IMG/VR virus record: IMGVR_UViG_2778261247_000004
From: a virus
Taxonomy: Duplodnaviria; Heunggongvirae; Uroviricota; Caudoviricetes
DNA length: 26,352 nucleotides
Strand: one strand, 5' to 3'
Shown here: positions 3,119-6,717 of the stretch, in pieces
How positions within the stretch are numbered: position 1 is the first letter of the stretch
Layout of the letters: every line of letters begins with the position of its first letter
Translations under genes and position numbers: made by a program
The notes under the pieces: model-generated
Told to the model about the DNA's origin: nothing
The model's database searches: none
The model's input: the letters and a program-made list of their open reading frames with translations, nothing else

Positions 3119-3871
3119 ATGAACCTTGAAGCCTTACCGAAATATTACTCCCCAAAATCTCCAAAATTGAGCGATGACGCATCGGCGACAGGCTCGGGTG
3201 GTTTAACAATTACGGATGTAATGGCTGCGCAGGGGATGGTGCAGTCGAAAGCACCGCTTGGGTTTGCCTTATTCCTGGCAAAAGTTGGTGTTCAGGATCC
3301 TCAATTTGCGATTGAAGGTCTGCTCAATTACGCGATGGCACTGGATAACCCGACATTGAACAAATTGAGTGAAGAAACCCGGTTACAGATCATCCCTTAC
3401 CTTGTGAATTTTGCCTTTGCTGATTATTCCAGGTCTGCGGCAAGTAAGGCTCGCTGTGAGCATTGTACTGGTACTGGATTTCATAATGTATTGCGCGAAG
3501 TGGTGAAACATTCCAGAAGCGGGGAATCCGTTATCAAAGAAGAGTGGGTGAAGGAACTGTGTCAGCATTGTCATGGCAAGGGAGAAGTCAGCACGGCGTG
3601 CAGAGGGTGTAAGGGTAAAGGTATTGTCCTGGATGAAAAAAGAACCCGGCTTCATGGCACGCCTGTTTATAAGACTTGTGGGCGTTGCAATGGAAACCGG
3701 TTTAGCCGTTTACCGACTACACTGGCACGACGTCATGTCCAGAAGCTGGTTCCAGACCTGACTGATTATCAGTGGTACAAAGGATATGCAGACGTAATTG
3801 ATAAACTAGTAACAAAGTGCTGGCAGGAAGAAGCATATGCTGAAACACAATTGAGAAAGGTGACGAGATAA
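3119..3871 (+). CDS. Q: Late-gene antitermination protein Q (QuuQ-like, zinc-finger type)
   Basis: 250 aa from ATG 3119 (RBS GGAG about 7 nt upstream; the track start at 3077 overlaps the previous gene). Repeated CxxCxGxG motifs (CEHCTGTG, CQHCHGKG, CRGCKGKG, CGRCNGN). Position directly upstream of the promoter/terminator region and lysis cassette. Confidence 0.7.
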   Translation: MNLEALPKYYSPKSPKLSDDASATGSGGLTITDVMAAQGMVQSKAPLGFALFLAKVGVQDPQFAIEGLLNYAMALDNPTLNKLSEETRLQIIPYLVNFAFADYSRSAASKARCEHCTGTGFHNVLREVVKHSRSGESVIKEEWVKELCQHCHGKGEVSTACRGCKGKGIVLDEKRTRLHGTPVYKTCGRCNGNRFSRLPTTLARRHVQKLVPDLTDYQWYKGYADVIDKLVTKCWQEEAYAETQLRKVTR

Positions 3872-3889
3872 GTGATTTTCGCCGAAGAT

Positions 3890-3978
3890 AGTGACATGAA
3901 GCTTGCATTTTTCAAAAAATATGGATAAGATTTTCTCAACGATGGGCTTTGTATGTCTGCCGTTGATAATTTTCACGA
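3890..3978 (+). promoter_or_regulatory. Candidate Q-dependent late promoter (PR'-like) and qut region
   Basis: Intergenic AT-rich stretch between Q and the first terminator, with TTGCAT and TTGATA -35-like hexamers. Exact -10/-35 not resolved by eye. Confidence 0.3.
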
Positions 3979-4004
3979 ACCCGCTGTTGAGCGGGTTTTT
4001 ATTT
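3979..4004 (+). terminator. Rho-independent terminator (tR'-like) downstream of the late promoter
   Basis: ACCCGC-tgttga-GCGGGT hairpin followed by TTTTTATTT. Confidence 0.6.
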
Positions 4005-4056
4005 ACTTGTACTGAAACACATTATATAACCTCATATCAGTTAAAAAGGAGGTTGT

Positions 4057-4392
4057 ATGATTAATGCCGTTGAGTACAGATTACCGTTAGGAAATATCTC
4101 TCCAGAGAATCTTGACGCGTTGTCAGAACTTATCGTTAAGCATTCCGATAAATTTAATAACTATGTACTTAGTTCTATTTCTGATGATGATATTCGATAT
4201 TCTTACGATTACTACAATTTTGAAATCACAGAGATAGATGAATATGGGTTTCACTTTATAGCACCATATAGCTATTATGAAGGATGCGTTGACAATAACT
4301 TCTCAGGAGAGGTTGAAGGTTATGCAGAATACGAAATTATTGATAATGAATTAGTCTTCTCTCTTGAGGAACTACCTTGGGATGTAAAATAA
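4057..4392 (+). CDS. Hypothetical highly acidic, Tyr-rich small protein (cargo gene in the Q-holin slot)
   Basis: 111 aa ORF with strong RBS AAGGAGG 5 nt upstream of the ATG. Visibly AT-rich relative to flanking phage genes. About 24 Asp/Glu against 5 Lys/Arg, counted by eye. No family recognised. Confidence 0.6.
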   Translation: MINAVEYRLPLGNISPENLDALSELIVKHSDKFNNYVLSSISDDDIRYSYDYYNFEITEIDEYGFHFIAPYSYYEGCVDNNFSGEVEGYAEYEIIDNELVFSLEELPWDVK

Positions 4393-4403
4393 ATATCAAT
4401 AAT

Positions 4404-4435
4404 AAAGGCCGTAACGAACGGCCTTTATTATTATA
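4404..4435 (+). terminator. Rho-independent terminator after the acidic cargo ORF
   Basis: AAAGGCCGT-aacga-ACGGCCTTT hairpin (9 bp stem) followed by ATTATTAT; A-run upstream, so possibly bidirectional. Confidence 0.6.
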
Positions 4436-4543
4436 AAATCATCAATGCCTGATGAATTAGAATGTAATTTTCGAATTAATAATAAATCAACATATCATTT
4501 CACGCTCCGATTTTCTGTCGGAGGCGAAACTGCGGCTATTCAT

Positions 4544-4849
4544 ATGCACGAAAAAGAGAATCTTGCCGGAGCGTTCTGGCTTGTTTTGCTGATCATCGCA
4601 GGTTGGGGGGGGCTTGTCCGTTACCTGATTGATGTGAAGCAGAGTAAAGCAACGTGGAGCTGGATAAATGCCCTCGCTCAGATAGTTGTATCAGGATTCA
4701 CCGGTGTTATTGGTGGCCTAATCAGTATCGAAAGTGGATTCAGTATTTACATGATTCTCGCAACTGCGGGGATTAGTGGTGCGATGGGTTCGGTTGCACT
4801 GACGTACTTCTGGGAACGACTGACAGGGGTGAAAAATGCAAAATCTTAA
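4544..4849 (+). CDS. Putative holin (three predicted transmembrane segments)
   Basis: Three hydrophobic segments (FWLVLLIIAGWGGLV; WINALAQIVVSGFTGVIGGLISI; IYMILATAGISGAMGSVALTYFW) and a charged C-terminus. 3' end overlaps the endolysin start. Start uncertain: ATG 4544 preferred; the track start at 4445 adds 33 non-hydrophobic residues and lacks an RBS. Not lambda S-like by eye. Confidence 0.6.
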   Translation: MHEKENLAGAFWLVLLIIAGWGGLVRYLIDVKQSKATWSWINALAQIVVSGFTGVIGGLISIESGFSIYMILATAGISGAMGSVALTYFWERLTGVKNAKS

Positions 4850-5312
4850 TCCTCAGCGTAAAGCTTTCCTCGATATGGTGGCCTGGTCAGAAGGAACGGA
4901 TAATGGGCTACAACCGACACGTAATCATGGTTATGACGTCATTGTGGGCGGAGAAATATTCACTGATTACTCCGATCACCCTCGCAGACTTGTCACGCTA
5001 AACCCAAAACTCAAATCAACGGCTGCCGGGCGCTACCAGCTTCTTTCCCGCTGGTGGGATGCATACCGTAAACAGCTTGGACTGAAAGACTTCTCTCCAA
5101 AAAGCCAGGATGCTGTTGCACTGCAGCAGATTAAAGAGCGTGGTGCTTTACCGATGATTGATCGCGGTGATATTCGTCAGGCTATCGACCGTTGCAGCAA
5201 TATCTGGGCTTCACTGCCGGGAGCTGGTTATGGTCAGTTTGAGCATAAGGCTGACAGCCTGATTGCAAAATTCAAAGAAGCCGGCGGAACGGTCAAAGAG
5301 ATTCAGGTATGA
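4836..5312 (+). CDS. R: Endolysin, lambda R-type lytic transglycosylase
   Basis: 158 aa, near-identical over most of its length to phage lambda R as I recall it ([17 protein letters not shown]...[123 protein letters not shown]). Confidence 0.95.
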
Positions 5313-5746
5313 GCAGAGTAACGGTGATTATATCCGCTCTGGTTATCTGCATCATCGTCTGCTTGTCATGGGCTGTTGATAATTACCGTGATGACGCCAT
5401 CGTCTACAAAGTACAGCGCGATAAAGCCACATCCATCATCGCTGATATGCAGAAGCGTCAACGTAATGTAGCTGAACTCGATGCCAGATATACAAAGGAG
5501 CTTGCTGATGCTAATGCGACTATCGAAAGTCTTCGTGCTGATGTTTCTGCTGGGCATAAGCGCCTGCAAGTCGCCGCCACCTGTACAAAGTCAACGACCG
5601 GAGCCAGCGGCATGGGCGATGGAGAAAGCCCTAGACTTACAGCAGATGCTGAACTCCATTATTACCGTCTCCGAAGTGGAATCGACAAGATAACCTCACA
5701 GGTCAATTACTTGCAGGAGTATATCAGGACGCAATGTCCCAACTAA
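5309..5746 (+). CDS. Rz: Spanin inner-membrane subunit (i-spanin), lambda Rz-like
   Basis: 145 aa. N-terminal TM segment [22 protein letters not shown] plus coiled-coil periplasmic domain, closely resembling lambda Rz. Start overlaps the R stop (ATGA). Confidence 0.9.
5508..5693 (+). CDS. Rz1: Spanin outer-membrane lipoprotein subunit (o-spanin), Rz1-like, embedded in the +1 frame of Rz
   Basis: +1 frame ORF wholly inside Rz. Signal peptide with lipobox ([20 protein letters not shown]) then a Pro-rich mature region ([13 protein letters not shown]). RBS AAAGGAG about 8 nt upstream of ATG 5508. Confidence 0.75.
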
Positions 5747-5843
5747 TCACATTTTGAGGATATTTAACGTCTATGCTTTAATGATTTTATTCATTGTTTT
5801 ATAATCGCGAAGAATAATGATGAACTTGGCAAAGGATATGATT

Positions 5844-6068
5844 ATGCGTATTAAACCTCAAGATTTTAAGTTTGATGTGTTGACTGTTGCTGGTTACGCT
5901 AACCCTAAAGCTAAAACACATTTCGCACCTTCTGCTTCTGGATTTAATTTTAAATGGGAGTGGGAAGGGAAAATTTATGAGCTTCATATCGAGCAAGAAA
6001 AATTACAGTACCCTGATTTTATTCTTGAACGACTTTTTGATGCCGCAATTGAGATGGCTAAAAAATGA
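5844..6068 (+). CDS. Hypothetical small protein (AT-rich island, unknown function)
   Basis: ORF 5817-6068; preferred start ATG 5844 (RBS AAGGA about 8 nt upstream), giving about 74 aa. AT-rich; a TATAAT-like hexamer at about 5800-5805. No family recognised. Confidence 0.45.
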   Translation: MRIKPQDFKFDVLTVAGYANPKAKTHFAPSASGFNFKWEWEGKIYELHIEQEKLQYPDFILERLFDAAIEMAKK

Positions 6069-6174
6069 CAAAAATCACCGGATGGGGTTTTTGTTTATAG
6101 ATATTCACACATAGCCCTTGCATCTAGAACAGAAAATCTTGTCATGGCGCGGGGCTATGTTAGCAAAAATTTAT

Positions 6175-6615
6175 TTAATAGGATATTTTGTTTGCAGATT
6201 TAAGCTCTTTAAGAGTAGCGTCAAGTATATGTAAAAATAGAGAAGTGTCGCCATACTCATAATGTGGCTCGGATTTGTATTCTCTAATATAAATAAATCC
6301 ACCTTTGGATAAAAATAAATCAATCAGCTCGTTGTTATTTTCATCGGTTGGGTCAATGGCAGCAAACTTCAATACAGGAGCTTCATCAATGACTAGCAGT
6401 GTTTCTTTGAAAATAAGTTCTAGTTCATATGTTGAAAGTTTGAGGGTTAACCTATTTTTTTTATCTTTATTGAAAATTATTGTGTCGCCAAGAAAATCGT
6501 ATTCAGAGCTTGAGTCAATAATGTTATTCTTAAGTTTGAGAGATATTGCATCTAAAGCCTTTTTATGCTCTGCGCACTTAACAACTTTATGAACATCTAA
6601 ACTGGGGATACTCAT
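6175..6615 (-). CDS. Hypothetical protein, minus strand (AT-rich island, unknown function; candidate accessory gene)
   Basis: 147 aa from ATG at 6615 with RBS AGGTGG 8 nt upstream on the minus strand (track ORF reaches 6678). Strongly AT-rich. Opposite in orientation to every flanking phage gene. No TM segment and no motif I recognise. Confidence 0.5.
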   Translation of the reverse strand: MSIPSLDVHKVVKCAEHKKALDAISLKLKNNIIDSSSEYDFLGDTIIFNKDKKNRLTLKLSTYELELIFKETLLVIDEAPVLKFAAIDPTDENNNELIDLFLSKGGFIYIREYKSEPHYEYGDTSLFLHILDATLKELKSANKISY

Positions 6616-6717
6616 AATACAACCACCTATGTAAGAACTAAAGAGCATTGAGTCTATGTGATTAATATCAAGACCCAATTAAATTTTTTAAATTATTAGA
6701 GTTAGATCCCACTTTAA

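Follow-up and report, generated by a model that had tools for sequence, protein, structure and literature searches.

The nearest described counterparts of the gene considered here, which encodes a 111-residue protein at positions 4057-4392 (+ strand) of a 26,352-nucleotide stretch of Caudoviricetes DNA (IMG/VR virus record IMGVR_UViG_2778261247_000004, called the window throughout), are the stxAB genes of Shiga-toxin phages, the morons of lambdoid prophages and, for the protein itself, the acidic proteins Ocr and ArdA. Stx, an AB5 toxin, is secreted and has signal peptides. Its genes occupy the slot that follows Q, pR' and tR' and precedes the holin gene, where Q-coupled expression is expected. 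The moron concept is reportedly owed to Hendrix and co-workers, with bor, lom and the HK97 and HK022 morons as lambdoid examples, and T7 Ocr is said to be robust to the loss of acidic residues. The term moron is used here as defined in PMC9928086. The lambdoid late promoter pR' is constitutive, its transcription being terminated at tR' until Q is made, and stx1 has a promoter of its own, Pstx1, besides pR' (PMC7547250). In lambda, the AACGAT of pR' occupies +1 to +6 and a discriminator-like GGG comes next, the two making up the sigma-70-dependent pause where Q loads (PMC4005639). T7 Ocr (gp0.3) has 116 residues, of which 34 are acidic and 6 basic (PMC4872106).

The window gene shares the slot of stxAB, and Q-coupled expression is likewise to be expected of it, but there is no homology between them and its product is a single cytoplasmic acidic protein of 13 kDa. 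With the lambdoid morons it has in common that it is an extra gene of AT-rich composition that brings a terminator, and possibly a promoter, of its own; unlike them it encodes neither a membrane nor a surface protein, and its slot is not that of bor or lom. The cspB and cspF genes of the Qin prophage and a cassette with an N6_N4 DNA methyltransferase are alternative occupants of the same slot behind related Q genes, although their proteins are unrelated to the 111-residue protein. The gene is very probably an accessory moron cassette heading the late operon of a lambdoid-type prophage. As such it is nothing unusual in kind: a moron, its family uncharacterised, in a variable slot that is well known.

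The gene, its slot and its family

The reading frame singled out in the original prediction is present, and the count given there of 24 Asp and Glu against 5 Lys and Arg proves exact; with 12 Tyr the protein is also Tyr-rich, as had been stated. Calculation gives an isoelectric point (pI) of 4.05, a molecular weight of 13.0 kDa and a charge of -19. The identical region of Escherichia coli UTI89 has 42 annotated proteins, of which this is the most acidic, its net charge per residue (-0.171) being twice that of the next (-0.086). No hydrophobic segment is found in the protein (Kyte-Doolittle maximum 0.59 over 19 residues), which is therefore without signal peptide or membrane helix. The gene is, as predicted, more AT-rich than its neighbours: its G+C content is 33.3% (29% at third codon positions), compared with 46.9% for Q, 47.7% for the holin gene and 52.9% for the window, and a sliding profile has a sharp AT-rich trough at ~4000-4550. 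The predicted ribosome-binding motif AAGGAGG stands, with a spacer of 4 nt instead of 5, a trivial difference, and GGAGGTT-ATG is kept in two related loci (L005 and L008). The ratio of non-synonymous to synonymous substitution rates (dN/dS) within the family is 0.06-0.28 for pairs with unsaturated dS; between the window gene and its Salmonella or Citrobacter orthologue dN is ~0.2 and dS is saturated. By these sequence measures it is firmly established that the frame is a real protein-coding gene under purifying selection, beyond what chance would produce.

The limits of the cassette emerge from 3,734 E. coli genomes with partial matches to 3500-5000. Homology on the Q side stops at ~3999-4011 and resumes at ~4512, before the holin gene (498-512 and 1013, respectively, when numbered within the 3500-5000 query). 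Of 5,426 complete E. coli genomes, 131 carry the cassette at ≥99.6% identity, and one further copy has 69%. The window is 100% identical over this stretch in UTI89, S88, IHE3034, NU14 and the type strain ATCC 11775, and in several avian pathogenic E. coli (APEC) strains; besides the type strain, carriers of the gene include the well-known extra-intestinal pathogenic strains UTI89, S88, IHE3034, APEC O1 and NU14. In O157 EC4115 and in a strain of sequence type 131 (ST131) the slot is empty, the same holin gene lying behind a different Q. In YPE10, whose backbone is very similar (the same gene order from an N6-adenine methyltransferase through Q, the end of Q being 92% identical), it holds a 67-residue reading frame and an N6_N4 DNA methyltransferase gene. 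The K-12 Qin slot, behind a Q end of 87.5% identity, holds cspF, cspB and ynfU, in keeping with the earlier suggestion that the Qin csp genes are alternative occupants. A repeat search around the cassette found neither flanking repeats nor an insertion signature nor a duplicated target. The gene is thus absent or replaced in close relatives, deviates in base composition (its neighbours have G+C fractions of 0.47-0.49) and has its own terminator, as morons do, and like stx it lies on the same strand as, and 3' of, pR' and tR' and 5' of the lysis genes. The homology break, the empty or differently filled slots and the flanking Q-pR'-tR' and holin together uphold the view that it is cargo in the stx-equivalent slot.

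The protein belongs to phrog_13663 (PHROGs v4, function unknown), which it matches over positions 1-111 of 111 with an expectation value (E) of 9.4e-54; all of 25 diverse relatives tested match it too. The family is without annotation and without a Pfam or NCBIfam model. A word-based search returned only relatives from Salmonella (72%) and Citrobacter (69%), an exhaustive profile search gave 26 representative clusters at E≤1e-3, a second search with an alignment extended the family to further sequences of Enterobacter, Citrobacter, Salmonella, Duffyella and Erwinia, and IMG/VR contributed 26 further family loci. The collection comprises at least 62 distinct sequences, all acidic and ~110 residues long, and the hosts are Enterobacterales wherever the source names the organism. 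In searches of the window reading frame against Pfam, NCBIfam and PADLOC there was no match, the sole Pfam hit, NIR_SIR_ferr (E 0.016), being below the cut-off; when 25 diverse members were each compared with Pfam, no family was matched by more than one of them. With three members as tblastn queries, 50,697 deposited phage genomes yielded nothing, and the family is known from prophages and viral contigs.

Acidity is a property of the whole family (43 members: mean Asp plus Glu 22, Lys plus Arg 7, pI 4.05-4.74). Only 8 alignment columns are consistently acidic among the 62 unique sequences, however, and it is therefore the total charge that is conserved, not a fixed pattern. The richness in Tyr is limited to the window subgroup, Phe replacing Tyr elsewhere. 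The near-invariant residues are F33, D45, R47, Y48, F55, G76-C77, D/E104-E105 and W108. In all copies measured the gene has a G+C fraction of 0.33-0.40, compared with 0.45-0.53 for the respective loci.

In more than 20 prophage contexts, from Salmonella, Citrobacter, Enterobacter, Duffyella, Erwiniaceae and IMG/VR contigs, the gene lies 3' of Q and 5' of a holin gene; a decayed prophage in Erwinia tracheiphila is an exception. Three unrelated families are represented among the upstream Q genes (PF03589; PF06576/PF06530; phrog_753) and four among the downstream holins (PF16083, PF16931, PF04971 and PF05106); six loci have an N6_N4 methyltransferase gene in the slot as well, before or after the family gene. 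The distribution is thus that of a small Enterobacterales family confined almost wholly to the Q-to-holin slot, and with this recurrence and the dN/dS values above, the refuting test proposed with the original prediction does not overturn it. The slot is modular: a small winged-helix-like reading frame, the acidic family gene and the N6_N4 DNA methyltransferase gene occur in varied combinations, and a conserved intergenic sequence upstream of the methyltransferase gene joins the modules (L003:3626-5032; L017:5662-6567; L023:2833-3879; L039:4501-5553; L043:3555-3848). A functional link to the neighbouring DUF968/HNH gene was considered and rejected, since the Duffyella and Erwiniaceae copies have no such neighbour. 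Bacteriocin genes are also present in two of the prophages. The one in Citrobacter has, on the opposite strand, a pore-forming colicin-domain gene (PF01024; L008:1181-2275), and the one in Erwiniaceae has, just past the lysis genes, a pyocin-S/colicin-DNase gene followed by its own PF01320 immunity gene (L021:7598-10160).

AlphaFold models the protein with a mean predicted local distance difference test score (pLDDT) of 74 from four sequences, and of 88 with a predicted template modelling score (pTM) of 0.80 from 25 sequences. The model has an alpha+beta topology, with β1 at residues 3-10, α1 at 19-28, α2 at 30-41, and further β-strands at 48-50, 56-60, 64-73, 82-95 and 98-105. As read from the sequence, the odd positions of strand 82-95 are S83, E85, E87, Y89, E91, E93 and I95, so that one face of the sheet would be mainly acidic with an aromatic residue. 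The best fold matches, all weak, are to NTF2-like, SnoaL-like or ketosteroid-isomerase-like proteins and VirB8-like domains; for these and cystatin-like alpha+beta folds the scores are too low, and the identities of 3-15% too weak, for membership of a superfamily. Foldseek against BFVD viral structures gave no match at E≤1e-3, a profile search of all Protein Data Bank (PDB) sequences gave none below E 0.1, and no enzyme family matched the confident fold model. The comparison with Ocr and ArdA that had been proposed turned out negative, neither being among the fold matches.

Predicted transcription of the cassette

The putative late promoter of the window (Table 1) has the same pause element as lambda pR' (PMC4005639): the sequence AACGATGGGC at 3939-3948 contains the -10-like AACGAT followed by GGG (3939-3947). 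YPE10 shares this promoter, as do IMG/VR loci whose Q is of the same family, and the tR'-like hairpin that follows is kept, with base changes, in the Salmonella and Citrobacter loci. The leader from pR' to tR' folds with -21.3 kcal/mol (z -2.7). The strong terminator that the cassette had been said to possess is a perfect 15-bp palindrome with a folding energy of -20.2 kcal/mol (z = -7.5 against shuffled sequences), which folds on either strand; a hairpin and T-run directly 3' of the stop codon are present in most of the relatives read. The earlier expectation of Q-dependent expression, drawn from placement, agrees with this architecture of promoter, terminators and Q, and is to that extent inferred from it. 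The leader at 3938-4005 would also give a constitutive RNA of ~65 nt with two hairpins, whose analogues by position are lambda 6S RNA and StxS, an Hfq-binding small RNA of Stx phages (PMC7547250). An Rfam scan of 3700-4700 gave only sub-threshold noise.

Promoter-like elements are also found between tR' and the gene. In all three close copies (window, Salmonella and Citrobacter) the hexamers of TTTAC(T/A)-17-TATAAC are conserved and the spacer varies, so that Q-independent expression may also occur. In 13 more distant members an upstream element of ~55 nt is conserved even where synonymous sites are saturated (L011:4905-4965, L015:4905-4965, L026:3905-3965 and ten others). It reads ATTTCTGA, an A-run, TTT(T/C)TG(A/G)CATAA, 15 nt and TAnnnT, and within it two direct ATTT(C/T)TGA half-sites lie ~20 bp apart, the second overlapping a TTGACA-like hexamer with TAnnnT 15 nt further on. 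This is good evidence, of a sequence kind, for a promoter/operator of its own with a regulator-binding site in the distant subgroup. A sigma-54 site had been considered for a TGGCA-like element in these relatives and was rejected, as most copies read TGACA. Upstream of a third subgroup (L045, L046, L048) there is no promoter-like element. The safest, and likely, reading of these signals is Q-dependent read-through for all copies with extra Q-independent expression possible for some, a dual arrangement that would parallel the use of Pstx1 and pR' by stx1 (PMC7547250).

Possible functions

Our best overall explanation, held tentatively and falling somewhat short of probable, is that the gene is a late-operon moron cassette encoding an acidic inhibitor or decoy. 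On induction, Q-modified RNA polymerase from pR' would read through tR' and the cassette terminator, and the protein would then be made alongside the lysis and structural proteins, as for stx. The weak promoter-like element after tR' may add a low level of Q-independent expression in lysogens, in which case the cassette terminator would keep lysogen transcription out of the holin gene. The product would be a soluble cytoplasmic alpha+beta protein of 13 kDa, its charge conserved in total and mostly not by position, serving as inhibitor or decoy and not as an enzyme, a lysis protein or a virion component. The specific mechanism that we favour, in which the protein binds and stoichiometrically blocks a basic nucleic-acid-binding protein from the host or a competitor (for instance a nuclease, a DNA-binding protein or one that acts in defence), is possible though somewhat unlikely; it is suggested by the large negative charge conserved in bulk, and this is the weakest inferred step. 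With 111 residues, 24 acidic and 5 basic, the window protein is similar in size and charge bias to Ocr and ArdA, and Ocr reportedly likewise conserves its charge in bulk (PMC3439906). A wider proposal, that the phrog_13663 proteins make up a new structural class, alpha+beta in fold and without relation to Ocr or ArdA, and act as acidic mimics of nucleic acid or as inhibitors of defence, is distinctly unlikely. Under it, lambdoid prophages of Enterobacterales would make these proteins with their late genes, and perhaps at a low level in lysogens, against nuclease-type or DNA-binding defences, and the adjoining DNA methyltransferase that is often present would serve the same end.

Several observations weigh against the inhibitor or decoy. 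There is no similarity in sequence or fold to a known DNA mimic, anti-defence or immunity protein. The function put forward in the original prediction, in DNA mimicry, anti-restriction or immunity, has the conserved acidity in its favour but was not borne out by any match to Ocr, ArdA, PADLOC, Pfam, NCBIfam or a solved structure, and the likeness to Ocr and ArdA holds for composition but not for fold, sequence or timing of expression. The late operon is an unusual place for anti-restriction proteins that protect incoming DNA, and it is there, not in an early or leading region as for anti-restriction mimics, that the family gene lies in more than 20 contexts. The fidelity to this slot may, moreover, reflect vertical descent with shuffling of the neighbouring modules, as could be said of bor or lom, and late expression would then not necessarily be required. 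The invariant residues are not those of an acidic surface and could mark a ligand pocket or active site. Two lone chromosomal copies lie outside any visible prophage, one between ycgN and dsbB homologues and one beside sbcB. As to expression in the lysogen, the -10 hexamer TATAAC of the window lacks the -7 T and is a weak promoter match, and the candidate was not called by a strict consensus scan; any promoter at 4002-4030 is therefore weak. A literature search by accession and locus tag, finally, found no experiment, expression data or studied member.

Some of the same observations point to a gene for lysogenic conversion, transcribed in the lysogen from its own promoter to its own terminator and of benefit to the host, with late read-through incidental. 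The promoter-like hexamers are conserved just past tR' in the window subgroup, and TTGACA-15-TAnnnT is better conserved upstream of the 13 distant members despite synonymous saturation; most copies read have a terminator, the gene is AT-rich, lone chromosomal copies exist, and the family has its known members in prophages and viral contigs with none among the deposited phage genomes. Small acidic proteins are typical nuclease inhibitors, and the product might then be an orphan immunity protein against a nuclease bacteriocin, a contact-dependent inhibition (CDI) toxin or a type VI secretion system (T6SS) toxin, or else a superinfection-exclusion or defence factor. We nevertheless regard conversion as rather unlikely. 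No toxin gene immediately adjoins the family gene in the contexts examined, the bacteriocin genes of L008 and L021 being kilobases away; there is no match to Pfam Imm families or PADLOC; and the weakness of TATAAC in the window and the third subgroup, with its lack of any promoter-like element, tell against a promoter of the gene's own.

The residues that are invariant, Arg, Tyr, Cys, Trp and Asp/Glu in place of a distributed acidic array, together with fold matches which, however weak, are headed by NTF2-like, SnoaL-like/ketosteroid-isomerase-like and VirB8-like proteins, would suit a small-molecule binder or enzyme with an NTF2/cystatin-like cone, such as a sponge for a defence nucleotide second messenger. 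We consider such a function, for which the motifs D45-x-R47-Y48, G76-C77-x-D79 and D104-E105-x-x-W108 would form the site, very improbable. An accessory role in the lytic programme, in lysis timing, as a regulator of endolysin or holin or as a helper in virion assembly, could be read from the position directly upstream of the holin gene in most prophage loci examined (gaps of ~95-450 bp). It is, however, extremely improbable: the neighbouring holins come from four unrelated families and the endolysins differ too (glycoside hydrolase family 24 (GH24) by RefSeq, Glyco_hydro_19 and PF00959), many close relatives have the same holin without the gene, a methyltransferase gene intervenes between gene and holin in several loci, two copies are outside prophages, and the protein is soluble and has no membrane segment.

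The gene sits in a position that phages use, in the case of Shiga toxin for example, for products made in bulk once the prophage is induced. If inhibition of a defence system or nuclease is its true function, the protein would bring a new fold to the few acidic mimic proteins and would give a use to this recurrent Q-to-holin cargo; if it is only a moron expressed in the lysogen, it would join the other uncharacterised conversion genes. In both cases a simple genetic test has become feasible, now that the family has been delimited together with its motifs and its conserved upstream element.

Other features of the window and related phages

Table 1. Positions of the 111-residue gene, its signals and the flanking late genes in the window
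Feature	Position	Strand	Details
Antiterminator Q gene	3119..3871	+	PF03589 Antiterm, E 2.7e-54; RefSeq 'antitermination protein'
pR'-like late promoter	3903..3948	+	TTGCAT 3903-3908, 17-nt spacer, TAAGAT 3926-3931, pause element
tR'-like intrinsic terminator	3977..4005	+	Hairpin 3977-3998: 9-bp GC-rich stem, loop GUUG, U-run
Candidate own promoter	4002..4030	+	TTTACT 4002-4007, 17 nt, TATAAC 4025-4030
Variable cargo cassette, ~500 bp	~4012..4511		Homology breaks among E. coli genomes
Ribosome-binding site AAGGAGG	4046..4052	+	4 nt (TTGT) ahead of ATG
111-residue acidic protein gene	4057..4392	+	phrog_13663 member; RefSeq WP_000606308.1, 'hypothetical protein'
Cassette hairpin terminator	4398..4436	both	15-bp perfect inverted repeat 4398-4412/4418-4432
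Holin gene	4544..4849	+	PF16083, E 1.5e-21
Lysozyme gene	4836..5312	+	GH24, RefSeq
Rz-like lysis protein gene	5309..5746	+	RefSeq

The Q protein of the window combines its PF03589 domain with a DnaJ-type CXXCXGXG zinc motif (residues 148-193, just under the Pfam cut-off). For the holin, a start at ATG 4445, which would give a reading frame of 134 residues, was rejected, as homology among prophages begins only at ~4512 and the RefSeq start is at 4544; from this accepted start the nearest GGAGG is 19 nt upstream, an unusually long spacing.

A second AT-rich island is found at 5750-6700 (G+C fraction 0.29-0.36), between the Rz-like gene and the HNH endonuclease gene, and is probably another moron. 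It contains a reading frame on the + strand (5817/5844-6068; RefSeq 'hypothetical') and one of 167 residues on the minus strand (6175-6678; 146 residues from the start chosen by other gene callers), which RefSeq leaves unannotated in UTI89. For the latter only a few close homologues were found, at 61-99% identity, and searches of Pfam, PHROG, PADLOC and NCBIfam gave no match.

A protein identical to that of the window is encoded at 30865-31200 of a 37,667-bp circular 'plasmid' of E. coli CX04 (NZ_CP081716.1; L050). This circle is a complete related phage genome, with an integrase gene beside a dusA fragment; its numerous frameshifts are of the sort usual in a long-read assembly left unpolished. 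The circle is probably an excised phage, which would imply that such phages are still active.
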